From a phage: a stretch of 64,000 nt of DNA. The notes beneath the pieces are model-generated. The model saw nothing but the letters and a program-made list of their open reading frames with translations. It had not been told where the DNA came from and ran no database searches. Below, one piece after another: positions 9,163 to 41,428 of this stretch (position 1 is its first letter; each line of letters opens with the position of its first letter). The DNA is taken from the NCBI GenBank assembly GCA_029942545.1, contig GCA_029942545.1_4114.1. One strand, written 5' to 3'. The position numbers were made by a program, and so were the translations under genes.

Positions 9163-9352
9163 AAAAAAGGGATTGACTCCGGTCAGTCCCTTTGCTATTA
9201 TATACGCATAGACAAAAACTAGCCCACAGGGTGCAGAGAAGTATCTATAAGATAGTTAATAACGGTGAGTAACTATCTGCTGGTGGATGTAATGCCAGTA
9301 CTCAAAACTATTTCAAAAAAGTATTGACAAAGTATATCAGTACTGAGATAAT
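9163..9352 (+). repeat. intergenic cassette R, copy 5
   Basis: hairpin GGGATTGAC-TCCG-GTCAGTCCC 9169-9190; box AGCCCACAGGGTGCA 9221-9235; promoter TTGACA-N17-GATAAT 9324-9352. Confidence 0.6.
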
Positions 9353-9406
9353 GTATCTCGTAGGGCGGCAATAGTGCAGCCCACCTCCAAAAGAGCGAGA
9401 TATAAA

Positions 9407-9622: not shown

Positions 9623-9640
9623 ATTTTAATAGAAAAAGTA

Positions 9641-9669
9641 TTGACAAAGTATATCAGTACTGCAATAAT
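9641..9669 (+). promoter_or_regulatory. sigma70-type promoter (TTGACA-N17-AATAAT), duplicate of 9324-9352
   Basis: promoter and leader (GTAGGGCGGCAAT...) duplicated for two consecutive genes. Confidence 0.5.
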
Positions 9670-9722
9670 GTATCTCGTAGGGCGGCAATGGTGCGACGGC
9701 CCACAAAGTTAGGAGATTCACC

Positions 9723-10818: not shown

Positions 10819-11067
10819 TGCGTAAAAGGATTTAGTACTGATTCAGAAAAAAGTCAAGGCGTTTTTAAAATTATGCGTTAAAAAAATGCATAGGTAATCC
10901 CTTGACTTTTTTGAAATAAAAGGGATTGGACTATGGCAAAATGCGTAGGGGGCTAAAGGGCGGGTAACCTTAGCGACTTCGATAAAGGGGTATTACGAAT
11001 AAAATGTTATTGACTTTTTATATGAATCGTATAAAATATGATCGATAATAATTTTAAGGGAGTCCCT
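10817..11067 (+). promoter_or_regulatory. non-coding junction with iteron-like ATGCGT(A/T) repeats and a 13-bp inverted repeat
   Basis: ATGCGTA at 10818, 10941, 11068 and ATGCGTT at 10873; AAAAAAGTCAAGG 10847-10859 is the reverse complement of 10900-10912. Confidence 0.4.
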
Positions 11068-11265
11068 ATGCGTATTTTAACTAAAGAACAGCACCACGAA
11101 AGACTTATCAATAACATGGCTATGATAATGTATAAGTCCCATGACCGTGGTATTGCCTATAAGCGTGAATTAATTATGGCACTATTCATTGGAACTAACT
11201 TTCAGGAAAGGTATGTCAACGATTGGATTTGGTATTTAATTGAAGATATAACGAGTAAACTATGA
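11068..11265 (+). CDS. family A small paralog (LGTNYQ-motif protein)
   Basis: motif FIGTNFQERYV; RBS AAGGGA; first member of the tandem array. Confidence 0.65.
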   Translation: MRILTKEQHHERLINNMAMIMYKSHDRGIAYKRELIMALFIGTNFQERYVNDWIWYLIEDITSKL

Positions 11266-11462
11266 AAATGCGTATTTTAAATAAAGAAGAATATCAATCA
11301 CTGTTACGTAAAAACTTCACAAAGATTTATAATACAGACACACACGTAGAACGAATGGAGTTATACCTTTTGATTACATTGGGAACAAACTATCAGGGTA
11401 GATGGGTGTGGCAATATATGGATACATTGAAAAATAAAATATTGTCCACGAGGAAACAATGA
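11262..11462 (+). CDS. family A small paralog
   Basis: motif LGTNYQGRWV; ATGA overlap. Confidence 0.65.
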   Translation: MKMRILNKEEYQSLLRKNFTKIYNTDTHVERMELYLLITLGTNYQGRWVWQYMDTLKNKILSTRKQ

Positions 11463-11668
11463 AAACTATAACACGAACCCAATCATACGGTCTTATCTTG
11501 AAATACATGGACTTAATGGTGGATATCAGCAAAGACCTGCCTAAAACTGAAATTGAAGTTGCAAGAGCAGAGATCCGCATGTTGGCTGTACTGAACACAA
11601 ACCATCAGGAAGATTATGTTGAAGAATGGATTCGATTTTTAATTCAAGATATAAAGAGTAAATTATGA
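11459..11668 (+). CDS. family A small paralog
   Basis: motif LNTNHQEDYV; ATGA overlap. Confidence 0.65.
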   Translation: MKTITRTQSYGLILKYMDLMVDISKDLPKTEIEVARAEIRMLAVLNTNHQEDYVEEWIRFLIQDIKSKL

Positions 11669-11880
11669 TTATTATAGAAAACTCATATCAATATACTGAA
11701 CGCATCGCTGCCAGACAACTTGAAATCCTCATAATATACGAAGAGACTTCTGATTTAAACTTAGCCGAGGTATTGGAAAATGAAATACTTTTGGGTGCAT
11801 TCTTGGGAACAGACTATCAGGAGTATTATGAGGAAAAGTATTTGTCATCTCTTGAGAAATACATCAGGAGCAAATTATGA
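11665..11880 (+). CDS. family A small paralog
   Basis: motif LGTDYQEYYE; ATGA overlap. Confidence 0.65.
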   Translation: MIIIENSYQYTERIAARQLEILIIYEETSDLNLAEVLENEILLGAFLGTDYQEYYEEKYLSSLEKYIRSKL

Positions 11881-12089
11881 TTATATTAACACCTGAAGAA
11901 TATAAGAAACGTTTTAATTCTGTCCAGACTGAAATATTACTTATATACCTTTCAAATGCAGACCTTAACTTATCAAGGGCAATGGAGAAGGATTTACTTA
12001 TGGGTGCATTTTTGGATACAGACTTTCAGGTGTATTATGTAGGGGAATACTTAATTGCACTCCAGAATTACATTAGGAGTAAACTATGA
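11877..12089 (+). CDS. family A small paralog
   Basis: motif LDTDFQVYYV; ATGA overlap. Confidence 0.65.
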   Translation: MIILTPEEYKKRFNSVQTEILLIYLSNADLNLSRAMEKDLLMGAFLDTDFQVYYVGEYLIALQNYIRSKL

Positions 12090-12304
12090 AACATTTAAGT
12101 AATATTGAGAAGATGAGAATTATCATTGATGCATTAAACAAATACGATACCCTTTTACAAATAAAAGGTTTAACTCGATTGGAACACAAGATAAACACCA
12201 CCGATGTACGCATGTTGGCTGTACTGGGGACGAACTTTCAGGAAGAGTATGTTGTTGCACACATAGTTGCCCTCACTGATCTAATAAGGGACAAATGTAA
12301 ATGA
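12086..12304 (+). CDS. family A small paralog
   Basis: motif LGTNFQEEYV; ATGA overlap. Confidence 0.65.
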   Translation: MKHLSNIEKMRIIIDALNKYDTLLQIKGLTRLEHKINTTDVRMLAVLGTNFQEEYVVAHIVALTDLIRDKCK

Positions 12305-12558
12305 AACACTTAACTGATGATGAATTTGAAACTATAATTCGTAAACTAACCCCCATCACAAGGATAGTCTACGGTGACCCCAGCCTTACATGGAACCAAA
12401 TGCGAGCTAAAGTTAATGAGCTATGGTTGCTGTACTTTATGGGGACTCAATATCAAGATAAGTTTTGCACAGAATATATCGAACAATTAACGAATGTTAT
12501 ACAGGATAAACTAGATGATTATTTGCTCACAAAACATGAAGACTTTATCAGGAGTTGA
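12301..12558 (+). CDS. family A small paralog
   Basis: motif MGTQYQDKF; ATGA overlap. Confidence 0.65.
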   Translation: MKHLTDDEFETIIRKLTPITRIVYGDPSLTWNQMRAKVNELWLLYFMGTQYQDKFCTEYIEQLTNVIQDKLDDYLLTKHEDFIRS

Positions 12559-12787
12559 GTATCAAACTGCCCTATTCTCTTTAATCCATACCCTTAGAAA
12601 AAACAATGCCTTACATGGTGCACCTGAAGTGGATGTTATCAACGGTGAACTTTATCTTATGAAATTCATTGGAACAAACTATCAAGATCTGTTCATTCAA
12701 CGATACTTATCCGCATTAAGAAACCAAATCCAATATAAAACCATCAAGGCCAAAAAAGAATGGAATAAACAATGCGACACAGACTAA
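12536..12787 (+). CDS. family A small paralog
   Basis: motif IGTNYQDLF; start uncertain (12515 or 12536), overlaps upstream gene. Confidence 0.55.
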   Translation: MKTLSGVEYQTALFSLIHTLRKNNALHGAPEVDVINGELYLMKFIGTNYQDLFIQRYLSALRNQIQYKTIKAKKEWNKQCDTD

Positions 12788-13020
12788 ATCACAAAATGTA
12801 TTGTAAACTATTGCAGACACTGGCACAGAAACACTATGACACGGTATCTGAAATATTACCCTATGATATCATGCGTTTACTTCACTGTGAGGCCGAGATG
12901 CTTGTACTGATGACAGGCACTGATAAAACAGCAATCGCCAGATCGATAGAGCAATATATTGATGCACACTGCCAACACATGAGAACCGAAATCTGGAGGA
13001 AAGAGAATGATAATTCTTAA
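12772..13020 (+). CDS. family A small paralog (divergent)
   Basis: same size and position in array; motif degenerate (MTGTDKTAIA). Confidence 0.55.
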   Translation: MRHRLNHKMYCKLLQTLAQKHYDTVSEILPYDIMRLLHCEAEMLVLMTGTDKTAIARSIEQYIDAHCQHMRTEIWRKENDNS

Positions 13021-13222
13021 TGAGTATCAGTATCATTGGAGGTTACAAACTATCAAATCAAAAGTGTATAGTATTGTGTTAAACAAATCTATTGCACAAG
13101 AGGACAAATGTGTTATAATAGCTGAAATGAAGTTGGGTGTATTCGTAGGGACAAACTATCAAAACATCTACACTGACGTATTATTAAGTTCCTTACGTAA
13201 CAAGGTGGTATCCAAAATATGA
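13007..13222 (+). CDS. family A small paralog
   Basis: motif VGTNYQNIY. Confidence 0.65.
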   Translation: MIILNEYQYHWRLQTIKSKVYSIVLNKSIAQEDKCVIIAEMKLGVFVGTNYQNIYTDVLLSSLRNKVVSKI

Positions 13223-13437
13223 GAAATTTACAAGGCTTTGAATACATCAGACTCCTGAAAACATGTGGAAGGAGAAGGAGAATGATATCAAGCGATAAGA
13301 GCATCCAAGCTAACCTTAAGCACGCACTAGTAACTGAACTCTATGTAGGTGCACTCTTAGGCACAAACTATCAACAAATGTATGTAGAACTATGGATTGA
13401 CGCTCTACAGAAAGAGGTTAAAAGTAAATGCAAATGA
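13219..13437 (+). CDS. family A small paralog
   Basis: motif LGTNYQQMYV; ATGA overlap. Confidence 0.65.
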   Translation: MRNLQGFEYIRLLKTCGRRRRMISSDKSIQANLKHALVTELYVGALLGTNYQQMYVELWIDALQKEVKSKCK

Positions 13438-13646
13438 TTAATTTAAGTAAAGACGAATTTTATGTTATACTGGCGAAAACTTATCCAGCACGTAAGGCCG
13501 TTTATGATAGTCACATTATTGAACCCTCAAAGAAGTTGATTTTAGTAAATGAGATAAAGATGCTTTCAGTCTTAGGAACAAACTATCAAGAGAATGCTGT
13601 ACTGATGTTAATTGATGCCCTCCAGCGAGAGGTTAAACGTAAATGA
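13428..13646 (+). CDS. family A small paralog
   Basis: motif LGTNYQENAV. Confidence 0.65.
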   Translation: MQMINLSKDEFYVILAKTYPARKAVYDSHIIEPSKKLILVNEIKMLSVLGTNYQENAVLMLIDALQREVKRK

Positions 13647-13873
13647 AAATGATTAATTTAACTTACCATGAATATCAAAAACGTTTAAATGCATCCAGAG
13701 ATATAAGGATTCAAATATTCAATAACAAAAGATTGAAGCCTGATATCAGGAAAATCAAAATCATAGAAGCCGTGTTGTGCAACTTCCTAGGGACTAACTA
13801 TCAGGAAGGTAAGGTAGAAAACTATCTTATAGAACTCATGAATAGTATTGAAAATAAATGTAAGGGTAATTAA
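13643..13873 (+). CDS. family A small paralog
   Basis: motif LGTNYQEGKV; ATGA overlap. Confidence 0.65.
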   Translation: MKMINLTYHEYQKRLNASRDIRIQIFNNKRLKPDIRKIKIIEAVLCNFLGTNYQEGKVENYLIELMNSIENKCKGN

Positions 13874-13874
13874 C

Positions 13875-14114
13875 ATGAAAATGATTAAATTATCTCAAGC
13901 AAAATATAAAGAACGCCTGGTGAAAATTGCACCTGGACTTAATGAAATCCATCACGGAGAAGTCATTAAACACGGAAATAAGATGATTAAGAAACTTGAG
14001 TTAAAGGTGGGTGCATTCATAGGAACAAACTATCAGGAGTATTATGTAGATGAATACATAATCGCACTTAAGAGATACATTGGAAGAAAACTATATCTAC
14101 AAACTAAAGAATAG
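13875..14114 (+). CDS. family A small paralog
   Basis: motif IGTNYQEYYV; ATG 13875 chosen by homology (MKMIKL); track start 13848 is upstream. Confidence 0.6.
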   Translation: MKMIKLSQAKYKERLVKIAPGLNEIHHGEVIKHGNKMIKKLELKVGAFIGTNYQEYYVDEYIIALKRYIGRKLYLQTKE

Positions 14115-14137
14115 TATTGAAAATAAATGTGAGGTTG

Positions 14138-14407
14138 ATGAACATGCAAATGATCAATTTAAGTAAAGATGAATATACCGAGCGTATGACAAAAATTACG
14201 CACAAACGTAATACAATCTATCACAACCCAGAAATTCAACACAGTAAGAAAATGATTATGATGCGTGAGTTAAAGATGGGTGTATTCTTAGGAACAAACT
14301 ATCAAGATACAGAAGTAAATCGCTTAATCGCGGAGTTACTACTGGAAATCAGAGGTAAGCTGTACTTTCATCAAATGACCCAACCACTGAGGTGTACTAA
14401 GAAATGA
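14138..14407 (+). CDS. family A small paralog
   Basis: motif LGTNYQDTEV; GAGGT RBS 8 nt before ATG 14138 (alternative 14144); track start 14117 is TTG. Confidence 0.6.
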   Translation: MNMQMINLSKDEYTERMTKITHKRNTIYHNPEIQHSKKMIMMRELKMGVFLGTNYQDTEVNRLIAELLLEIRGKLYFHQMTQPLRCTKK

Positions 14408-14619
14408 TCAACATCACATTGCAAGAAAGATTCATCCGAATCAACTATGCAATTACCAAATTAGATGCTACTATAGGATTCCAAAGTCTACCATACAAAA
14501 CCAGATTGTTATTAGAGTGTGAAGCTAAGTTGGGTGTACTGTTAGGGACGCAACACCAACAACGATATGTGGAAATCTGGATTGACCTTTTAACCCAAAA
14601 TATATATGAGAGAATGTAA
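14404..14619 (+). CDS. family A small paralog
   Basis: motif LGTQHQQRYV; ATGA overlap. Confidence 0.65.
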   Translation: MINITLQERFIRINYAITKLDATIGFQSLPYKTRLLLECEAKLGVLLGTQHQQRYVEIWIDLLTQNIYERM

Positions 14620-14850
14620 ATGCAAAATGAAATGATATACTTAACGAATGAAGAATTTCAAGAGAAGATGTTAAAAACCAAAAACATTACTCTTAAGTTC
14701 GTTCCAAATCAATCAATATCTGAAGTATCTGCAAATGTATTGTTTCAGAAGCTACCATACGTTCTTGGAACTGATAAACAAGAATTTATGGTTCAAAATA
14801 TGATTGAACATCTTATAATGAGTATTAAGGAAAAAGTTAATGCAAAATGA
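14620..14850 (+). CDS. family A small paralog
   Basis: motif LGTDKQEFMV. Confidence 0.65.
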   Translation: MQNEMIYLTNEEFQEKMLKTKNITLKFVPNQSISEVSANVLFQKLPYVLGTDKQEFMVQNMIEHLIMSIKEKVNAK

Positions 14851-15094
14851 AATGATATACTTAACCTATAATGAATACGTCGAGAGATTAGTTCGTGCCA
14901 AGAGATATACCAATAAACGTCCAATTGACCTAAACCAAACCCCAGCAGAAAGGAGTGCAGAAGTATTATTCCAATCACTACCATATCTTCTGGGAACTGA
15001 TAGACAAGAGGAATATGTTGCACGTATGATTAGATATCTTAAAATCACTATTAAGGAAAAAGTAAATGCAAATGAAATACTTAACAGACGATGA
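14840..15094 (+). CDS. family A small paralog
   Basis: motif LGTDRQEEYV; N-terminus MQNEMIYLT duplicated from the previous gene. Confidence 0.65.
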   Translation: MQNEMIYLTYNEYVERLVRAKRYTNKRPIDLNQTPAERSAEVLFQSLPYLLGTDRQEEYVARMIRYLKITIKEKVNANEILNRR

Positions 15095-15317
15095 GTTAAA
15101 AGAACGACTAATTAAATCAAGAAAACATACAAATCAACTTCCAAACGACACAAACAAGTCTCCAGCGGAAAGGAGTGCAGAAGTTTTATACATTCAACTC
15201 ATGTACTTTCTTGGCACTGACAGACAAGAGTATTACATTGAAAGTATGCTTCGATATCTTAAATTCTCTATAAAGGAAAAGATACATGATCAAGTATTTA
15301 AAAATCCTAACAGTTAA
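15066..15317 (+). CDS. family A small paralog
   Basis: motif LGTDRQEYYI. Confidence 0.65.
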   Translation: MQMKYLTDDELKERLIKSRKHTNQLPNDTNKSPAERSAEVLYIQLMYFLGTDRQEYYIESMLRYLKFSIKEKIHDQVFKNPNS

Positions 15318-15528
15318 TGAATATCATAAGATTGTAATGAAAACTAATAGTGATTACGCTAAAAAATCAAACCCAAAGTACATACTGGAACACACATTTG
15401 AAGAACGTCAATTAGCTTTAGTTGAAGCAAAACTTCTTGCACTATTAGGAACAAACTATCAGGAAGAATACAATAGAAAACTAATATACCTTTTAACTAA
15501 ACATATAAGAAAAAGAAAAAATGCATGA
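15286..15528 (+). CDS. family A small paralog
   Basis: motif LGTNYQEEYN. Confidence 0.65.
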   Translation: MIKYLKILTVNEYHKIVMKTNSDYAKKSNPKYILEHTFEERQLALVEAKLLALLGTNYQEEYNRKLIYLLTKHIRKRKNA

Positions 15529-15755
15529 AACACTTGACAGATGATGAACATGGGCTTATAGTAATGGATGTAATCAACATCGAATACAAAAAGTTGATAC
15601 GCTATCGTTGTTATGAAGATAAGCAACTCGTTCTAGCAGAACAGAAGTTGTTTCGACTCTTAAACACAAACTTCCAAGCACAATACGAAGAATCGTATAT
15701 GTACCTTTTGGCGAGGAAAGCAAAAAGAGATTATGAAAATTTTAAGCAAAGGTGA
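15525..15755 (+). CDS. family A small paralog
   Basis: motif LNTNFQAQYE; ATGA overlap. Confidence 0.65.
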   Translation: MKHLTDDEHGLIVMDVINIEYKKLIRYRCYEDKQLVLAEQKLFRLLNTNFQAQYEESYMYLLARKAKRDYENFKQR

Positions 15756-15954
15756 TTCAGTAATATTACTTATAGAGAGTTCAAGTAAATTCTTAAACAT
15801 AACACTGTCTGATATAGATGAAGATGATAAAGAAGTACTGAGAGCAGATTTAAGAGTACTGTTACATATCGGAACAAACCTACAAGAAGAATATGTAGAG
15901 TGCTACATCAATGAACTTAAAGAATCAGTACTGAGAAAATGCAAATGCAAATGA
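15733..15954 (+). CDS. family A small paralog
   Basis: motif IGTNLQEEYV. Confidence 0.65.
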   Translation: MKILSKGDSVILLIESSSKFLNITLSDIDEDDKEVLRADLRVLLHIGTNLQEEYVECYINELKESVLRKCKCK

Positions 15955-16172
15955 AAATCATTACCGATGTAGAATACCTAACAATCATAAATGGACTGTT
16001 TTTGAAGCTCTTCGTCATTAACACATCAGATATACCAGATATGGATAAAATTATTAAGAGAAATGAAGTCTATGTTCTAGCTACCCTTGGAACGAACTAT
16101 CAAGAACACGACATTAAAGATTATATTAATACACTTAAACGAGCTATTGAACTAAAATGCCAAAACCACTAG
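15939..16172 (+). CDS. family A small paralog
   Basis: motif LGTNYQEHDI. Confidence 0.65.
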   Translation: MQMQMKIITDVEYLTIINGLFLKLFVINTSDIPDMDKIIKRNEVYVLATLGTNYQEHDIKDYINTLKRAIELKCQNH

Positions 16173-16372
16173 GAACAGCAGAATACATTGAACTCATGGG
16201 ATTACACTTCTCATCCTTTCAGAAACTTATGCGAGAATCAAAGAATGATTTAGAATATACCATCAGAGGTTCCGATTTAAGAATGCTTCTCACCCTAGAC
16301 ACAGATTCCCAAGAGCGATTTGTCAATGAGCATATTAGAGCACTTTTAATGGAAATTAAAAGTAAACTATGA
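16157..16372 (+). CDS. family A small paralog
   Basis: motif LDTDSQERFV. Confidence 0.65.
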   Translation: MPKPLGTAEYIELMGLHFSSFQKLMRESKNDLEYTIRGSDLRMLLTLDTDSQERFVNEHIRALLMEIKSKL

Positions 16373-16584
16373 AGATAATATCAAACCAAGAGTACTTGGC
16401 ACTATTCAGGAAGAATAATCACAAATATATGGCACTTGATTCAAGAACTGATATAAGTGAACTTGAAAAAAATCTTTTGCGTTCAGATATGATAGTACTG
16501 ACACTCTTAGGAACACAGCATCAAGAGAGAACTGTTAATTCATACATAGGTATTCTTATACAGATAGTACAGGAAAAGATATGA
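16369..16584 (+). CDS. family A small paralog
   Basis: motif LGTQHQERTV; ATGA overlap. Confidence 0.65.
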   Translation: MKIISNQEYLALFRKNNHKYMALDSRTDISELEKNLLRSDMIVLTLLGTQHQERTVNSYIGILIQIVQEKI

Positions 16585-16802
16585 GAATCATAACACAACA
16601 AGATATTCTTAAGTTCACAAGGGTTCATGCATCTGAATTTGATGCTATATTATCAAAAAGTTACAACAACCCTTATACAGAAGATGTACACTACAATGAA
16701 TTATGGATGTATATACTTTTAGGTACAAATAAGCAAGAGCAAGCCGTACAGAAGTATTTGACAGCTTTACGTGATGCTACAGCTAATGGAGTATGTGTTT
16801 AA
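16581..16802 (+). CDS. family A small paralog
   Basis: motif LGTNKQEQAV; ATGA overlap. Confidence 0.65.
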   Translation: MRIITQQDILKFTRVHASEFDAILSKSYNNPYTEDVHYNELWMYILLGTNKQEQAVQKYLTALRDATANGVCV

Positions 16803-16803
16803 T

Positions 16804-17046
16804 ATGAAAGTACTGACAGAACTAGAAATGTATCATAGATTTAATAAGTACTATCATTTACTTAAACCTATACAGAGGATTAAGTGTCCCTTTGTAGTGA
16901 AACAGGTATTAATTTATGAGCATAAGTTATTTGTATCATTAGGTACGAATGAACAAGAGTATTATTTGAAGTTGTACTTGATTACATTAATAGATTTAAT
17001 TCACTATAAAACCAAACAAGCTAATAAAGAGAAATATGAAAACTAA
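16804..17046 (+). CDS. family A small paralog
   Basis: motif LGTNEQEYYL; ATG 16804 directly after upstream stop; track start 16771 is upstream. Confidence 0.6.
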   Translation: MKVLTELEMYHRFNKYYHLLKPIQRIKCPFVVKQVLIYEHKLFVSLGTNEQEYYLKLYLITLIDLIHYKTKQANKEKYEN

Positions 17047-17388: not shown

Positions 17389-17417
17389 TTGACAGTACGG
17401 TAAGGTAGTGCTATAGT
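17389..17417 (+). promoter_or_regulatory. sigma70-type promoter (TTGACA-N17-TATAGT)
   Basis: -35 17389-17394, -10 17412-17417. Confidence 0.55.
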
Positions 17418-25504: not shown

Positions 25505-25888
25505 ATGAAGATGCAAATAAAATATAATGAATTTTGTGCAAGGACATTCATGTACACAGGTGAAATGGCGACGCATTGTAATTTGTTTAAAGGTGACTTA
25601 AACTACGCTAGGGACAAGATTTTAAAGTACTGGAATGCTAACTTTTATTTGATGGATTTTAGTACTGGGTTTCATGGGATATCTATCGAGATGCCGGACT
25701 ATACAGTACTTGATGATGCTGCACTGTTTCAGGAGGCATTAGTATTTGATAAGAAGTACATCTGTACATTAGAAGAGATGATTGAATTACAGCGTAGAAT
25801 TAAATGTATTCACAGGGAATGTATAGATATCTGGTGCAGTACTGGTGAAGATGATTTTTGTAATCATTTCAATCTAGGGGAAGAGTGA
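25505..25888 (+). CDS. family B paralog
   Basis: motif MPDYTVLDDAALFQEALVFDKKYICT; ATG 25505 (MKMQIKY); track start 25451 is upstream. Confidence 0.6.
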   Translation: MKMQIKYNEFCARTFMYTGEMATHCNLFKGDLNYARDKILKYWNANFYLMDFSTGFHGISIEMPDYTVLDDAALFQEALVFDKKYICTLEEMIELQRRIKCIHRECIDIWCSTGEDDFCNHFNLGEE

Positions 25889-26112
25889 TGGAATTTGATT
25901 TTTTAATATCAGTACATACGGTCAAGGGTGCACCTCAGTACCTTTGTAATTTAAACAAAGGTGATTTGATTATGGATACAGATACAGAGGTTGTATACAG
26001 TTCTAATGTTCTGTGCAAGGAATTTCAGAATTCGAAAATGCTTGAGTTATTGTGCATTGCTGATTGTAATATTCTGTACAAATTCAGTACTAATCTGAAG
26101 GAGATTTTATGA
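25888..26112 (+). CDS. truncated family B-related protein
   Basis: N-terminus MEFDFLISVH...CNLNKGDL near-identical to gene 26477 but lacks the FQxS half. Confidence 0.5.
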   Translation: MEFDFLISVHTVKGAPQYLCNLNKGDLIMDTDTEVVYSSNVLCKEFQNSKMLELLCIADCNILYKFSTNLKEIL

Positions 26113-26477
26113 AAAAAGAAATTAGAATCCAATTCGGTATGAGGAAAAAAGAGGTCATCTGTACACTGAATCATGCGGACGTGGAAATGGGTGGTGCATT
26201 ACAAAAATTCTCACATTTTGTTCTTGTACTATATGAAAATGGGTCTTTTAAAATCTTCACATATGATGATTCAAAAAATTACCGTAATGATTTTGTAAAT
26301 CTTACAGTACTGTCAGAAGAGGAATTCTTTCAGGAAAGTACTGTCTGGAATTTACAAGGAGCACCAATTGAATACGTCCGTGCTACACAGGTAGAGATGA
26401 TCAAAACAATGCAGAACTATCCAGAAGATTATATGACTAAGTTTCCTGAATCTTTTAATGTAGAGGTTGAGTACTGA
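26109..26477 (+). CDS. family B paralog
   Basis: motif SEEEFFQESTVWN. Confidence 0.65.
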   Translation: MKKEIRIQFGMRKKEVICTLNHADVEMGGALQKFSHFVLVLYENGSFKIFTYDDSKNYRNDFVNLTVLSEEEFFQESTVWNLQGAPIEYVRATQVEMIKTMQNYPEDYMTKFPESFNVEVEY

Positions 26478-26833
26478 TGGAATTTGATTTTTTAATATCA
26501 GTACATTCTTTTAAGCACAGTTTTCAGTACTTTTGTAATTTAAACAAAGGTGATTTAATGCACAGTGCGAATGAGTATATTCATTTTACTGATGGTAAAT
26601 TCTCATTTATTGATTACAGTTCATTAGATTTTCCATACACTGATATGCCGGACTATACATTGATGGATGCTGGTGAACTATTTCAAGCTGAATTAGTATT
26701 TGACAAGAAGTACATCTGTACATTTGAAGAAGTAATTACTATACAAAATGAAATGAAGGTGTATGCATCGTTGAATAAACCTAATGAATGTATTAATCAA
26801 GAATACAAATTCAATATAGGAATTCCAAAATGA
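26477..26833 (+). CDS. family B paralog
   Basis: motif MPDYTLMDAGELFQAELVFDKKYICT. Confidence 0.65.
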   Translation: MEFDFLISVHSFKHSFQYFCNLNKGDLMHSANEYIHFTDGKFSFIDYSSLDFPYTDMPDYTLMDAGELFQAELVFDKKYICTFEEVITIQNEMKVYASLNKPNECINQEYKFNIGIPK

Positions 26834-27189
26834 CATATGATTATTCTATGTACTATTATAAGTTGCCTAAAGGATGGGACTTGTGCTGTAATCTTATTAA
26901 GGGAGACTCGGAACATGAGTTGAGTTTATATATGCACTACAAAGATTCTTGTTTTAAATTTATTCATGTATTACATGATGGCTATGACTATGAATCTGAG
27001 AGTCTTATAGATTATACAGTACTGGACGATGGTGAACTATTTCAGGAAGCATTAGTGTTTGATAAGAATAAGTACTCCTGTACATTTGAAGAAATGGTTT
27101 CTTTGCAAAACGAAATGAAGAGATTTGAAAAAGAAAACGTATTTAATCCATCCCCATCAAGAACGAATAATTATTATTTCAATATATGA
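26830..27189 (+). CDS. family B paralog
   Basis: motif DYTVLDDGELFQEALVFDKNKYSCT. Confidence 0.65.
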   Translation: MTYDYSMYYYKLPKGWDLCCNLIKGDSEHELSLYMHYKDSCFKFIHVLHDGYDYESESLIDYTVLDDGELFQEALVFDKNKYSCTFEEMVSLQNEMKRFEKENVFNPSPSRTNNYYFNI

Positions 27190-27198
27190 GATTATAAA

Positions 27199-27693
27199 AT
27201 GACATTACAGAGTTCATTGGAAAAAGCAAAGAAGATTCATGAGTACATGAATATGGCAAAAGAAGGTTCAGTTTACGGTGTTTTCAAAGACACAAGTACT
27301 CAATATTATGTGCCGGATAACCTCCTTTATAATGACTGCTCAGATACAGAAACGTGCGTACTGGATACAGAAACATGCATACTAGATACCGACCCTAATG
27401 ATTATGAATGTTTCATTGATATGCATAATGAGTACATGGTCTATATTAATGATGCAGATATTACCATATACAGTACTGACAGCGATTCCGATGACATTAT
27501 AATTCCGAGTGAAGTACTAGAAGGTCCGTGGGATAGTGAAGAGTATTACTTCCAACAAAGTACTGTATACGATGATGAAGTACTTGATGTTATTATAATT
27601 ATGTGGTACTTTAAAAGTATTGGTTCTGGGAACTTCTATTTCGATTACAAATACGTAAAGAAAACTGTAGATAACGGTATTAACAGGGGTTGA
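27199..27693 (+). CDS. family B paralog (MSLxxALE subfamily)
   Basis: motif SEEYYFQQSTVYDDEVLDVIIIMWYFKSIG. Confidence 0.7.
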   Translation: MTLQSSLEKAKKIHEYMNMAKEGSVYGVFKDTSTQYYVPDNLLYNDCSDTETCVLDTETCILDTDPNDYECFIDMHNEYMVYINDADITIYSTDSDSDDIIIPSEVLEGPWDSEEYYFQQSTVYDDEVLDVIIIMWYFKSIGSGNFYFDYKYVKKTVDNGINRG

Positions 27694-27694
27694 A

Positions 27695-28165
27695 ATGAGT
27701 TTAGAAAGAGCATTAGAGATTGCGAAGTTAATTGATTTATGCAGCAAAGAAATTGTAGCAAATTGTCTCAATGGATATCTATTCAAGGAAGGTAAATCTT
27801 ATTGTCGAATGAGATACGATGACAGTAGTGAGTACATTCACATGTACGATGAAAACTTAGATTCTTCTGAAACAACACTCAATGGGTGTGATGTTAATTT
27901 GGAAGATAATTACATGTACTTCTGTCGTGATGCTGATATTTTAATACAAGATTCTGACATTCTAACTGGTGGTGAAGAGAAACATCTTCCGTATTCAGTA
28001 CTGGATAATAACTGGGGTAGTGAAGATTACTATTTCCAGCAGAGTACTATATATAATGAAGATATACTTGACAAACTTGTTATTTCTTGGTACTTTCATA
28101 ACACGGATTATAGTAGCTTCTACATAGACTTGGATCTACTAAGAGTACTTAAAGAGGATATATGA
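27695..28165 (+). CDS. family B paralog (MSLxxALE subfamily)
   Basis: motif SEDYYFQQSTIYNEDIL. Confidence 0.7.
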   Translation: MSLERALEIAKLIDLCSKEIVANCLNGYLFKEGKSYCRMRYDDSSEYIHMYDENLDSSETTLNGCDVNLEDNYMYFCRDADILIQDSDILTGGEEKHLPYSVLDNNWGSEDYYFQQSTIYNEDILDKLVISWYFHNTDYSSFYIDLDLLRVLKEDI

Positions 28166-28602
28166 GTTTAGAAAAAGCACTAGAACTAGCCAACAAAATA
28201 CATCAGTACCATGATAAAATAAAAAGTGGGTTCTATGCTGATAAAGTACATGCATATGGGAATGAATATTACCTCACTGGAGTAAAGAGATACTCTAATG
28301 ATATTTTACTTATGGGTCATGATAAAGACAATAATATACAGTACTCTTCATGTAGTCAATATACTAGTTTTATGGTATATATTCCTGGTACTAAGATTAC
28401 TTTTGACACATCAAATACACCTGTTGACTTCGGAGTACTTGATGGCCCGTGGGGTACTGAAGAGTATTACTTCCAACAGAGTCTCATTTTTAACCAAGAA
28501 ATGCTTGATTCCTTGGTTGTGTTGTGGTACTTTAAGGAATTGAATTTTGAACCATTCTTTCTTGACTGGGGATCATGTGAGTATTTAATTTCAGGGGAAT
28601 AA
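28162..28602 (+). CDS. family B paralog (MSLxxALE subfamily)
   Basis: motif TEEYYFQQSLIFNQEML. Confidence 0.7.
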   Translation: MSLEKALELANKIHQYHDKIKSGFYADKVHAYGNEYYLTGVKRYSNDILLMGHDKDNNIQYSSCSQYTSFMVYIPGTKITFDTSNTPVDFGVLDGPWGTEEYYFQQSLIFNQEMLDSLVVLWYFKELNFEPFFLDWGSCEYLISGE

Positions 28603-28604
28603 TA

Positions 28605-29093
28605 ATGTCATTACAAAGTGCGTTGAAAGAAGCAAAGAAGATTCATGAGTACATGATTATGGTACAGGAAGGTTCAGTACCAGGTGTATACAAAACATCA
28701 GATACGGAATTCTTCGTTAAGGATAGAGATGATTATGACGATTCAGAGGTATGTGCAGAAACATTAGTACTGCACACTGATACTGGTGACAGTGATAACT
28801 GTGAATATCATATGTACAATCAGTACATTAGTTATTGCCGTAATGAAGATATTACCATCTACAACACAGATAGTGATGCTGATGACACTATCATTCCTTA
28901 TTCAGTACTGGAAGGTCAGTGGGATAGTGAAGAATATTACTTCCAGAATAGTACTATCTACAATGAAGAAGAACTGGATGTTATTGTGATTATGTGGTAT
29001 TTCAAAAGTATTGACTCCAGTAGTTTCTATTTTGATTATGAATATGTAGAGAATACAGTAGGAGAAGGTAATGTCATTACAAAGTGCTCTTGA
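28605..29093 (+). CDS. family B paralog (MSLxxALE subfamily)
   Basis: motif SEEYYFQNSTIYNEEEL. Confidence 0.7.
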   Translation: MSLQSALKEAKKIHEYMIMVQEGSVPGVYKTSDTEFFVKDRDDYDDSEVCAETLVLHTDTGDSDNCEYHMYNQYISYCRNEDITIYNTDSDADDTIIPYSVLEGQWDSEEYYFQNSTIYNEEELDVIVIMWYFKSIDSSSFYFDYEYVENTVGEGNVITKCS

Positions 29094-29523
29094 AAAAGCA
29101 AAAGAACTACATGGATACTTTGAAGATATAAAGGCCGGAAAGTTCAAAGAAGTGTACAAAGCCGAGAACGGTAACTACTACAAAGATGAAATGTATAATA
29201 ACTCCGTTGGTGTAAGGGTTATTCTTGGGTTGAATTCCAATAGTCCTATATCGTTTTCTGAATACAATAGAGATGCAGAATTTATTAGTTATGTTGAAAA
29301 TGGTAGCATTCGTTTTATTAATAGACAAAAACCATTAATTTTGAATTATGAAGTACTGGATGGTCAGTGGGATAGTGAAGAGTATTACTTCCAAAACAGT
29401 ACTGTATATGATGATGAAGTACTTGAAGCATTAGTTATTATGTGGTACTTCAAGAGTATTAGCTTCCCTCGATTTTATTTGGATTTCGAAGATCTTCGTA
29501 AAGATCCAGAAGGTATAGAATGA
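29071..29523 (+). CDS. family B paralog (MSLxxALE subfamily)
   Basis: motif SEEYYFQNSTVYDDEVL. Confidence 0.7.
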   Translation: MSLQSALEKAKELHGYFEDIKAGKFKEVYKAENGNYYKDEMYNNSVGVRVILGLNSNSPISFSEYNRDAEFISYVENGSIRFINRQKPLILNYEVLDGQWDSEEYYFQNSTVYDDEVLEALVIMWYFKSISFPRFYLDFEDLRKDPEGIE

Positions 29524-29834: not shown

Positions 29835-30142
29835 TGACAAAAAATGAATTTGATTCACTTTGTACGGTTTATAATTCATTGACAGAAATACCTGACTTTA
29901 TTAATTACGTTTCAGCTTTAAATCAAATTATGAATAGTTTTGAACAATCGTTTGAAGAGAAATATGCAGGTAGAAAAGTTCTATGTCATATGTCAATGTA
30001 CTTGGGAGATGGTGAGCCTTACACTACCAGTACTACATGTGAAATAAAAAAATATAATATATTATTGGGCACGATAGAATTCACAGTATCCAATGGTGGT
30101 AGTTATATGTACTTTAGAGATGGAGTGGTTGAATTATTATGA
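29834..30142 (+). CDS. hypothetical protein (102 aa)
   Basis: ORF track; no family motif. Confidence 0.5.
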   Translation: MTKNEFDSLCTVYNSLTEIPDFINYVSALNQIMNSFEQSFEEKYAGRKVLCHMSMYLGDGEPYTTSTTCEIKKYNILLGTIEFTVSNGGSYMYFRDGVVELL

Positions 30143-30588
30143 GTTACGAAAGTGCAATCAAGAAAGCAAATGATATTCTAAAAGTTGTTCAGTTCTTCAA
30201 AGAAAATCCTGAATACTTAGCTGATGAAAACCATGATCACGATGAGAGATTGAGACGAAAAATTGTCGCTTTATTTGACACTAATGCGGATAATTATAGT
30301 CTAATTGAGTTAGCATACGATTATATTTCATTGAACCGAAACGGACATTTAGTTAATATAGAAAGACATGCGAGTGAAGAATCTTTTAAAATTTCAGACA
30401 TTTTATCCCTGAGTACTGAAGAAGGGTACTTCCAGGGTAGTACTGTTTATGAACAAGGGACACTTGACAATCTATGCACATTCAGTGTAATATATCAGAA
30501 ATCAGTACTGGATGTATTTTATCTTGACACTGCTGAACTGGATACACTAATCAATTTTGTTACTACTGAAGAGGCCACATTTGAGTGA
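30139..30588 (+). CDS. family B paralog
   Basis: motif TEEGYFQGSTVYE. Confidence 0.65.
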   Translation: MSYESAIKKANDILKVVQFFKENPEYLADENHDHDERLRRKIVALFDTNADNYSLIELAYDYISLNRNGHLVNIERHASEESFKISDILSLSTEEGYFQGSTVYEQGTLDNLCTFSVIYQKSVLDVFYLDTAELDTLINFVTTEEATFE

Positions 30589-31121
30589 TGAAAGTTAACA
30601 TCAATGACTTTGATGCATTACAAGATTTATCAAAAAAGATTCGTATCATCGTACCAGTACTCAAAAAATGTAGTACTGGTTTAATTGATCCTAGTACTGT
30701 TGTTAATGAGAAGTACAATTTTCATCGTGTATTACAGGGTACAGGTGCATTTCAGAAGTGTGATGTACGTGAGAAACACGTAATTGATACCTCATTGTTT
30801 TCTATTGGTGCACCTGTGTCGAATAATTCTATTTTCCTGGATAACGCAGGAAATATTCAACAATTAACATTTAAGAAAAGGAAAAAGAACAATAACATTG
30901 GTGTGTACGCGATGAAGTGGGGTCAACCTGATTTGAAGCGTGAAATTCACATCCCTAAGTACAATTACAATGCATTTGACGAACAGTGTTTTCAACTATC
31001 GTGTACTGACCCTGACTATGCAATCATTCAGTTCTATATGGAATTGCAGATAGCATTTAACAGTAATTTATATATTAACTTGTTGGCAATGAACATCGAT
31101 GAAGTATTCAAAAACATTTAA
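30588..31121 (+). CDS. family B paralog
   Basis: motif FDEQCFQLSCTDP; ATG 30588 overlaps upstream stop; track start 30585 is GTG. Confidence 0.6.
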   Translation: MKVNINDFDALQDLSKKIRIIVPVLKKCSTGLIDPSTVVNEKYNFHRVLQGTGAFQKCDVREKHVIDTSLFSIGAPVSNNSIFLDNAGNIQQLTFKKRKKNNNIGVYAMKWGQPDLKREIHIPKYNYNAFDEQCFQLSCTDPDYAIIQFYMELQIAFNSNLYINLLAMNIDEVFKNI

Positions 31122-31317
31122 TCGAATTGAATACATGAGAACTGTGAGTGCAGTGTGGGATATATGGTTCACTACTAAACCAAAAATGGATTACCATGAC
31201 TTTAAGCTCTTGTTCTTCGTTGGCTCTAACAAACAGGATGTTGCAATGAAGGGTTATATTCAGCACTTACAGGAACTAATTCAGAAGAGGGTTAATGAAA
31301 ATAATAGACCAAGATGA
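31099..31317 (+). CDS. family A small paralog (interspersed)
   Basis: motif FFVGSNKQDVAMKGYI. Confidence 0.6.
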   Translation: MKYSKTFNRIEYMRTVSAVWDIWFTTKPKMDYHDFKLLFFVGSNKQDVAMKGYIQHLQELIQKRVNENNRPR

Positions 31318-31486
31318 TATTGCTAAACTATTCAATATATATTCTACTAGAATGATGCAAACAGACTCATATAGTACTGAATTCAAAGAGTTGAAAGTAT
31401 TGATGTACTTGGGAACCCAATATCAGGAACAAGTTATTTTGGAATATATTAATTCGTTGAAGAAGGATATCCGTTATGTACGATGA
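31295..31486 (+). CDS. family A small paralog (interspersed)
   Basis: motif YLGTQYQEQVI. Confidence 0.6.
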   Translation: MKIIDQDDIAKLFNIYSTRMMQTDSYSTEFKELKVLMYLGTQYQEQVILEYINSLKKDIRYVR

Positions 31487-33691: not shown

Positions 33692-34228
33692 ATGTTAGAT
33701 AAAAAAATGAACTCTGGAACCCAATATAATCATCTTAAGTTGGATACATTCGAATCAGCTATCAGTACAGCACAAGATATAATTGATATTATCAAGTTCA
33801 TTAAAGAAGATAAGTTCAAATGTTTGAAAATACTAAATCGTTCAATGTACCGTGATAAAAATATTCATGTATCAGTACGTAGACCGAAAGATCAAGAAAG
33901 TGGGAGAGATTTCTATAACAACAGTGAGCAGTTCGAATGTGAATATGATCCAGAATTTAGAGGTGGTTTCATGTGTTACAGTATGAAGGATACCTCACAC
34001 ATTGAGATACGTTCATCGAAAGGTGGCATACGTACATTAGAGTTTATTGATATAGTTTTAAATCAGGAATACTACTTTCAACTATCATTATTGTTTCCTG
34101 CATACGATTTAGGAGTTCTATTCATGTATAAGTACTTTCATGAGCACTGGAATGAAGACTTCTATCTGGACTTAGAAGATTACCAATTAGTTTGGAAAGA
34201 AATGGTAGAACTTCGCAACCCATCTTGA
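33692..34228 (+). CDS. family B paralog
   Basis: motif NQEYYFQLSLLFP; ATG 33692 after GAGG; track start 33644 is upstream. Confidence 0.6.
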   Translation: MLDKKMNSGTQYNHLKLDTFESAISTAQDIIDIIKFIKEDKFKCLKILNRSMYRDKNIHVSVRRPKDQESGRDFYNNSEQFECEYDPEFRGGFMCYSMKDTSHIEIRSSKGGIRTLEFIDIVLNQEYYFQLSLLFPAYDLGVLFMYKYFHEHWNEDFYLDLEDYQLVWKEMVELRNPS

Positions 34229-34254
34229 CACCCTCCGATTCTTTGTGATATAAT
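34225..34254 (+). promoter_or_regulatory. internal sigma70-type promoter with extended -10 (TTGACA ... TGnTATAAT)
   Basis: -35 34225-34230, TG 34246-34247, -10 34249-34254. Confidence 0.6.
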
Positions 34255-38068: not shown

Positions 38069-38089
38069 AGACCCGTATGGGTCTTTTTG
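38066..38089 (+). terminator. intrinsic terminator
   Basis: AAAGACCC-GTAT-GGGTCTTT followed by T5. Confidence 0.8.
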
Positions 38090-38155
38090 TGTTTATGGCT
38101 TTACAAGAGCATTCAGGTGTGTTATACTTGATTTTAACTAGAGTTGGAGGAATCT

Positions 38156-41367: not shown

Positions 41368-41372
41368 ATTCG

Positions 41373-41398
41373 TACCAGGGGTTGACTCTGGTATTTTT
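41373..41398 (+). terminator. intrinsic terminator
   Basis: TACCAG ... CTGGTA stem followed by T5. Confidence 0.7.
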
Positions 41399-41428
41399 GT
41401 ATGATACATTGTCCTAAAGGAGAATTTT

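Follow-up and report, generated by a model that had tools for sequence, protein, structure and literature searches.

We analysed a 64,000-nucleotide (nt) stretch of phage DNA from contig GCA_029942545.1_4114.1 (assembly GCA_029942545.1; hereafter the window), in which five consecutive genes at 27199-29523, called here copies A to E, lie inside a long array of related small genes whose products share a short motif centred on Phe-Gln (the FQ motif). The five genes are probably paralogues of long standing, stably inherited as a block and kept under selection within a recombining FQ family of ~40 genes; we infer their role. The first-pass annotation of this DNA had taken the block for a recent five-fold tandem duplication. 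Tandem duplication inside one subfamily was borne out: the five are adjacent, all belong to phrog_9317 and are mutual best matches. Its recent date was not, as synonymous divergence is saturated in all ten pairs of copies and each copy has closer orthologs in related phages.

The block was 99.8% identical at the DNA level to Escherichia phage vB_Eco_slurp01 and 98.3% identical to phage 121Q, where its counterpart is genes 370-374, and its identity was 90-95% in 19 other jumbo phages of E. coli and Salmonella, which are ~350 kb in size and assigned to Asteriusvirus. Judged by these matches, the host phage of the array is a giant E. coli phage of the 121Q/PBECO4 type (Asteriusvirus). Copies A-E are annotated "hypothetical protein" in every related phage examined. 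By tblastn, the subfamily of the five was matched only in 36 Asteriusvirus-type records, and a scan of IMG/VR with the subfamily alignment returned 121Q itself and nothing else.

All five genes are on the + strand, and neighbouring copies abut within 1-2 nt or overlap. Copy A (27199-27693, 164 amino acids (aa)) is followed by copy B (27695-28165, 156 aa), the most widely conserved of the five. The start of copy C (28162-28602, 146 aa) overlaps the stop of copy B by 4 nt, and the final 23 nt of copy D (28605-29093, 162 aa) overlap the start of copy E (29071-29523, 150 aa), which has an AGGAGA ribosome-binding site 7 nt before its ATG. Every one of the proteins starts with M[ST]L[QE]xxLExA[KN] and contains [ST]E[ED]YYFQ[QN]S[TL][VI] followed by WYF[KH]. 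The open reading frames (ORFs), these motifs and the common phrog_9317 membership upheld the shared N terminus and core that had been noticed in the five consecutive genes. The description of the core as almost identical is literally true of 27199, 28605 and 29071 (IMWYFKSI) and fits 27695 and 28162 more loosely. The phrog_9317 hidden Markov model (HMM) matched all five over their full length (E 4e-67 to 6e-57, profile positions 1-155/160 or more). In BLASTP searches the five were mutual best matches (E 1e-15 to 1e-60), with other family members at 1e-4 to 1e-7, and they form the tightest sub-cluster of the FQ family. Codon-aligned DNA identity averaged 55% (49-71%) within the five vs 43% (35-57%) for random family pairs, so the copies are more alike than random members. 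The nearest paralogue of copy A is copy D (59% protein identity), and these two (27199/28605) are the most similar pair in the entire array, with 71% DNA identity. The five are thus what tandem duplicates should be: adjacent, in the same orientation and of the same subfamily.

Sequence divergence between the copies placed the duplication far back. Paralogue pairs among the five shared 28-59% protein identity and 47-71% DNA identity. By the Nei-Gojobori method, the proportion of synonymous differences (pS) was 0.56-0.79 for all ten pairs, with synonymous divergence (dS) ranging from 1.0 up to unmeasurable. In the variable parts of the genes, the frequency of identical codons at conserved residues equalled the expectation from codon usage alone, which indicates that these parts are saturated. 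The best DNA repeat inside the five genes was 78% identical over 148 nt, and none was higher. The low synonymous divergence and high DNA identity of recent duplicates were not seen among the five, nor were copies fewer in close relatives, losses being found only in more distant lineages.

Orthologs of the individual copies were much closer to them. Protein identity to orthologs was 84-98% in PBECO4, 82-87% in A4 and 71-84% in ph0011, with copy B at 60% in Turkey5; ortholog dS was 0.09-0.27 vs PBECO4 and 0.28-0.94 vs ph0011. Copy A has orthologs in PBECO4 (96%) and A4 (82%), is present in SP27 and is absent in ph0011. Copy B was found in PBECO4 (90%), A4 (85%), ph0011 (80%) and Turkey5 (60%), and copy C at 84-87% in PBECO4, A4 and ph0011. 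The orthologs of copy D were 98% identical in PBECO4 and 83% in ph0011, and A4 has a D-like copy at 60%. Copy E exists in the phages as two allele types, ~95% and ~70% identical, and is absent in A4; SP27 carries all five copies, with the 70%-type E allele. In a neighbour-joining tree, the sequences from PBECO4, A4, ph0011 and Turkey5 clustered by copy and not by genome. Copy number in closely related phages had been proposed as a check on recency: 22 records contained all five copies, with DNA identities of 90-99%, so they are not a recent gain. Since the orthologs are far closer than any paralogue, the quintuplication would be older than the main Asteriusvirus split. Taken together, these comparisons show, so far as sequences can date it, that the tandem duplication of the five happened before the main Asteriusvirus lineages separated.

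We also compared nonsynonymous with synonymous divergence (dN/dS) between orthologs. The ratio was 0.06-0.38 in 13 of 14 comparisons (0.20-0.28 for copy B, 0.29-0.38 for copy C and 0.06-0.28 for copy D), which argues that each copy is separately maintained by purifying selection. Pooled by region, ortholog dN/dS was 0.24 in the N-terminal helix, 0.30 in the middle, 0.17 in the core and 0.34 in the tail. The pairwise ortholog values gave no sign of positive selection, overall or per region. All five copies are intact, and none resembles a decaying duplicate. As measured between orthologs, the copies are shown to have been kept as separate genes under purifying selection since the duplication.

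Turnover was nevertheless found around and, at the scale of the genus, within the block, as the first-pass annotation had proposed in calling the array a case of ongoing birth-and-death. The subfamily has five copies in most genomes, four in ph0011 and A4, and three to four in Turkey5 and JNE01. In ph0011, copy A is absent and other ORFs occupy its slot; A4 lacks copy E and has the divergent D-like copy; the three or four copies of Turkey5 and JNE01 are divergent and have other members of the family lying between them. Alleles of copy E with ~95% and ~70% protein identity (29071-29523 in the window; L003 5001-5444; L007 3501-3944) were reassorted among otherwise similar phages: SP27 (species Asteriusvirus PBECO4) combines the 70%-type E with copy A, and ph0011 has the 70%-type E without copy A.

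To judge from the alignments, the clearest recent event is a cassette insertion just upstream of the five (25970-26558, + strand). The cassette adds ~589 bp relative to PBECO4 and consists of a 3' gene remnant, gene 26109 (26109-26477, + strand, a short form of 122 aa in phrog_13866) and a second copy of the 5' end of gene 26477. The resulting direct repeat of 85 nt (25886-25970 / 26475-26559, ~90-94% identical) flanks the cassette. The cassette was present in ~11 of 36 related phages, at least 20 being without it, and in A4 the same cassette lies at a different array position (L002 8091-8612), 92.7% identical. The insertion event gave rise to ORF 25888 (25888-26112, + strand), a chimera of 74 aa without a complete family domain. 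Its first ~28 codons are a 26477-type 5' end and its last ~46 the 3' end of an A4_364-type member, joined in frame over a short stretch of microhomology, D-L-(I)-M. The earlier impression that 25888 is truncated was therefore right, in that it is a truncated and chimeric copy of the 26477 5' end (the ~90-94% repeat). The cassette and ORF 25888 are direct evidence, read from the DNA, of a recombination mechanism that appears to reshuffle the array. Presence/absence and positional variation, together with a truncated member (25888), are the marks of birth-and-death, while the five themselves are intact. Ongoing birth-and-death thus describes genus-scale turnover and a cassette that is polymorphic among close relatives; it does not describe recent events inside the five.

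The family to which the block belongs was defined by an iterated HMM search that started from the five and covered the + strand ORFs of the window. The FQ array (17036-45428, + strand) holds 38 members by this search, tightly packed, and the motif occurs in at least 4 ORFs besides; this array of ~40 genes spans ~28 kb, roughly 8% of the phage genome. The family signature is [ST]EExxFQxS[TL], with F and Q the sole invariant non-Met columns in 41 window members, and it was present in 164 of 169 family proteins checked, mostly library matches. Searched against 1.84 billion representative proteins, the family profile matched only 171 clusters. Those matches that were listed were all 65-215 aa long with one matched stretch each, and the distant clusters that were sampled came mostly from metagenome contigs of up to 249 kb. 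On the strength of these searches, the family is restricted to this phage lineage. The groups phrog_9317, 12674, 15629, 13866 and 34017 cross-match weakly and have no function assigned in PHROGs. Scans of the five and their neighbours against Pfam, NCBIfam and PADLOC gave nothing meaningful, and the family profile had no match at E <= 10 among all PDB sequences. A "Phi92_gp213" annotation note on a family member of ph0011 was not supported by tblastn. The nearest outgroup member to the block, gene 30139 (30139-30588, + strand, 149 aa, phrog_12674), has a like type of N-terminal helix (MSYESAIKKAN...).

AlphaFold2 modelled copy E with a mean predicted local distance difference test (pLDDT) of 89.6 and a predicted template modelling score (pTM) of 0.84. 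The model runs from an N-terminal helix through a seven-strand sheet, a short helix, the FQ helix and a long helix to a final strand. The short form 26477 (pLDDT 85.6, pTM 0.80) was predicted with the same layout minus the N-terminal helix. According to the models, the variable middle is the sheet and the conserved ends are helices. Foldseek against viral models recovered family members together with weak matches in Klebsiella phage RaK2, Cronobacter phage GAP32 and a Yersinia phage, and no convincing fold match outside the family.

At the level of codons, copies A, D and E differed between their conserved ends and their middles. Over the first 20 codons and the 36 codons of the core in these three genes, 81% of codons at conserved residues were identical (A-D 30/37, A-E 29/36), compared to a saturation expectation of 0.46 (binomial p ~1e-5). 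Middle and tail were at the saturation level (ends vs rest, Fisher p ~0.02 for A-D and A-E). Over 111 nt of the core, A, D and E were mutually 79-86% identical, and the window was 85-86% identical to its ph0011 orthologs; the core DNA of B and C was 61-72% identical to the other copies. Between orthologs, pS was 0.28 in the core and 0.23 in the middle. As the core is not below the middle, synonymous constraint on the core is unlikely. Core sequences of the PBECO4 and A4 orthologs were 91-97% identical, closer than the paralogues, and for this reason exchange among A, D and E is not recent. There is modest support for the conserved ends of A, D and E being younger in ancestry than their middles, through old gene conversion or segment exchange.

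Differential constraint alone, that is, protein-level selection on the N-terminal helix and FQ core without recombination between paralogues, would produce the same contrast of ends and middles. The whole family is recognised by its FQ core, which is also the part modelled most confidently (pLDDT 95-98), and ortholog dN/dS has its minimum there (0.17 vs 0.30). Yet such constraint leaves the synonymous excess unexplained (81% vs 46% expected in the ends of A, D and E, with middles at expectation), the orthologs are without lowered synonymous divergence in the core, and the core DNA identity of A, D and E matches the window-vs-ph0011 ortholog level. We therefore consider it rather unlikely as the whole explanation. 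The domain shuffling proposed earlier fares accordingly: the chimera 25888 and the younger ends of A, D and E speak for it, but the pattern mostly fits differential structural constraint as well. The original picture of a recent five-fold duplication, in an array in rapid birth-and-death with domain shuffling, drew on real features. The five are adjacent, alike in orientation and subfamily, and include the top pair 27199/28605 (71% DNA identity), copy number does vary among related phages, and next to the block lies a cassette that is polymorphic and has given rise to a chimeric ORF. This picture is improbable in the face of dS saturated in every pair, genus-wide orthologs of each copy that are much closer than the paralogues, copies that are all intact and under purifying selection, and the lack of any DNA repeat in the five above 78% over 148 nt. 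Had the duplication been recent, it would have shown gene birth live, which is not the case.

Two further explanations concern the motif itself. It could be a nucleic-acid element placed in each gene, either as a site of recombination or as a motif with a regulatory part in RNA or DNA, and short motif-centred DNA repeats do recur over the array (repeat families D4, D5, D8 and D10). These repeats are only 60-76% identical, however, and the motif is always in frame and keeps its position in the predicted fold. Moreover, the ~40 genes alternate between GAA and GAG, TTT and TTC, CAA and CAG, and, for Ser, AGT, AGC, TCA and TCG. This alternation of synonymous codons indicates that the FQ motif is a protein-level feature, and a nucleic-acid element is very improbable. 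The motif also resembles the site of a Gln-specific protease. The tobacco etch virus (TEV) protease cleaves ENLYFQ|S/G and picornavirus 3C protease LFQ|G, and E-x-x-[YFL]-F-Q-[x]-[S/G] in the family could make its members substrates or decoys of a TEV- or 3C-like enzyme. Several members match the TEV-like pattern E-x-x-Y-x-Q-(S/G) at P6, P3 and P1, with F at P2 in addition: TEEGYFQGS in gene 30139 (30412-30438), SEEMYFQGS in 34761 and SEEYYFQQS in the five. Against this, the motif lies inside a helix in both models (pLDDT ~90-97) and not in an exposed loop, the P1' residue is highly variable, and no cognate protease was identified, none having been searched for. Because the motif is helical and confidently placed in the models, we believe that the resemblance is probably coincidence and give the protease reading very little credence. 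EEEFFQGS also occurs among family members. TEV protease could in principle cut recombinant family members if the sites become exposed.

Regarding the role of the proteins, the five are strongly acidic, with an isoelectric point (pI) of 4.05-4.67 and a net charge of -10 to -26; across the family, the median pI is 4.8. The published virion proteome of phAPEC6 (PMC7247149, Table 1) contains no gp4xx protein, including the orthologs gp438c-442c. Promoters of σ70 type are predicted at 34225-34254 (+ strand; perfect TTGACA, 18 nt, TG and TATAAT, at the junction of the gene 33674 stop and the following gap) and at 17389-17417 (+ strand; 11/12 positions with an extended -10, in the gap that directly follows the first gene of the family), each by consensus match only. 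Other strong consensus σ70 sites lie at ~38.1 kb and ~41.4 kb. The gaps at 38069-38155 and 41368-41428 contain a GC-rich hairpin with a T-run, which is terminator-like, and a σ70-like promoter directly after or overlapping it; this arrangement suggests several transcription units within the array. Our literature search found no transcriptome for the genus.

Acidity, σ70-type sites in a packed array and absence from the virion proteome together led us to favour a non-structural, early, host-directed role. The proteins may possibly be binding proteins for host takeover or anti-defence, paralogues differing through the surface of the sheet, although we would not call this probable. A bolder version, about which we are more doubtful, is that the FQ proteins might be an unrecognised fold class of ~40 early effectors, with the FQ helix as scaffold and a hypervariable sheet for each host target. 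If so, the block could be a specialised sub-repertoire, and recombination between conserved segments could make new specificities.

The explanation that we prefer for the block as a whole, an old paralogue block under selection in a recombining family, runs as follows. Tandem duplication produced the phrog_9317 block before the divergence of Asteriusvirus. The helices at the ends have since been conserved and the beta-sheet middle has diverged to saturation, with probable old conversion or segment exchange among A, D and E at the conserved ends. Recombination by short homology, at gene boundaries and conserved segments, remodels the array: copies have been lost, alleles replaced, a cassette moved and now and then a chimera formed. 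Transcription may be early and by host RNA polymerase, and the paralogues may serve as a binding repertoire against host factors, with targets that would differ by the variable sheet. Several observations weigh against parts of this account. The comparison of copy A between the window and A4 gave a dN/dS of 0.83. The conversion signal comprises 26-37 codons per pair, is significant for some pairs and is absent with B; it is owing to these small counts and the absence of the effect in pairs with B that we rated the support for segment exchange as modest. Promoter-like sites in the region numbered 112 vs 124.5 expected from shuffled sequence, without excess, so early expression leans on the few strong intergenic sites. 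Finally, absence from the virion proteome counts as negative evidence only.

Immediately upstream of the five, three short-form genes on the + strand belong to phrog_15629: 25505 (25505-25888), 26477 (26477-26833, 118 aa, the one modelled) and 26830 (26830-27189, 119 aa). They had been proposed as one subgroup, and their common PHROG and protein identities of 36-42% agree with this; gene 25505 is 36% identical to both 26477 and 26830. Genes 25505 and 26477 share a patch of 81% DNA identity (25688-25783 vs 26642-26737). Compared with sequenced phages, the DNA here is mosaic: the block at 27199-29523 is nearest slurp01 (99.8%; 121Q 98.3%), and a stretch lying 1.5 kb upstream of it (25700-26700) is nearest 121Q (99.6%), slurp01 matching at 94.5% in three pieces. 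In GenBank, the counterpart of gene 25505 in phAPEC6, gp447c (L006 1-250), is named "amidohydrolase 3", and the 178-aa A4_348 in the A4 array (L002 1080-1616) is named "DNA ligase". From gene size and context, both names look like annotation artefacts.

Over the whole window (1-64000), GC skew is positive, the cumulative skew climbing steadily to 4.1, and the + strand holds nearly all long ORFs; ARAGORN found no tRNA genes in it. The gaps at 9310-9406 and 9623-9722 contain the same ~70-nt element, a σ70-like promoter (GTATTGACAAAGTATATCAGTACTG-N2-ATAATG) and then a leader (TATCTCGTAGGGCGGCAAT-GTGC...GCCCAC), which has the look of a promoter-leader module repeated in front of small genes. A second tandem family occupies 11038-17046, with ~28 consecutive genes of ~70-90 aa that share an LGTNYQE-x-YV motif, and two stray LGTNYQE members are found inside the FQ array at 31099-31486.

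The literature search returned nothing on the array beyond one sentence on 121Q. Hua et al. 2017 (mBio, PMC5646251) mention there a tandem gene array in this phage, from the same phage lineage and genome region as the FQ array, without family definition, dating, subfamilies, selection, motif or structure. Their sentence may refer to the LGTNYQE array (11038-17046) rather than the FQ family. In PHROGs, the five are full-length phrog_9317 and their neighbours are placed in sibling PHROGs; the database splits the family into unannotated groups, and the FQ motif, or an array formed by one superfamily, does not appear in the entries returned. The confident predicted structure, the invariant motif and the lack of a known relative make the FQ family a defined target in the search for new host-takeover or anti-defence functions, which is of relevance to therapeutic E. 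coli and Salmonella jumbo phages.

T4-like phages are said to have hyperplastic regions of small early genes, reportedly described by Comeau et al. in 2007. The FQ array is like these regions in its small, packed genes on one strand, its predicted σ70-type promoters, the gain, loss and replacement of cassettes, and a presumed part in host adaptation. It differs in that one paralogous family of ~40 members dominates here, whereas the T4-type regions consist of unrelated ORFans; its early expression is our own deduction. The family is also like the anti-restriction DNA mimics Ocr and ArdA in being small, strongly acidic and non-virion. This is an analogy only, as we found no similarity of the family to Ocr or ArdA in sequence or fold. 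Closer in kind is the zinc-ribbon family of ~35 copies in Bacillus phage G (Iyer et al. 2021, PMC7824862), likewise a large expansion of a small single-domain protein in one jumbo-phage lineage. The fold and sequence of the two are unrelated, and the FQ family is without a recognisable domain or zinc-ligand pattern. Large lineage-specific expansions were thus already known in jumbo phages, whereas the FQ family itself had not been characterised; it adds a dated, selection-tested case of a jumbo phage filling ~28 kb with one private protein family.

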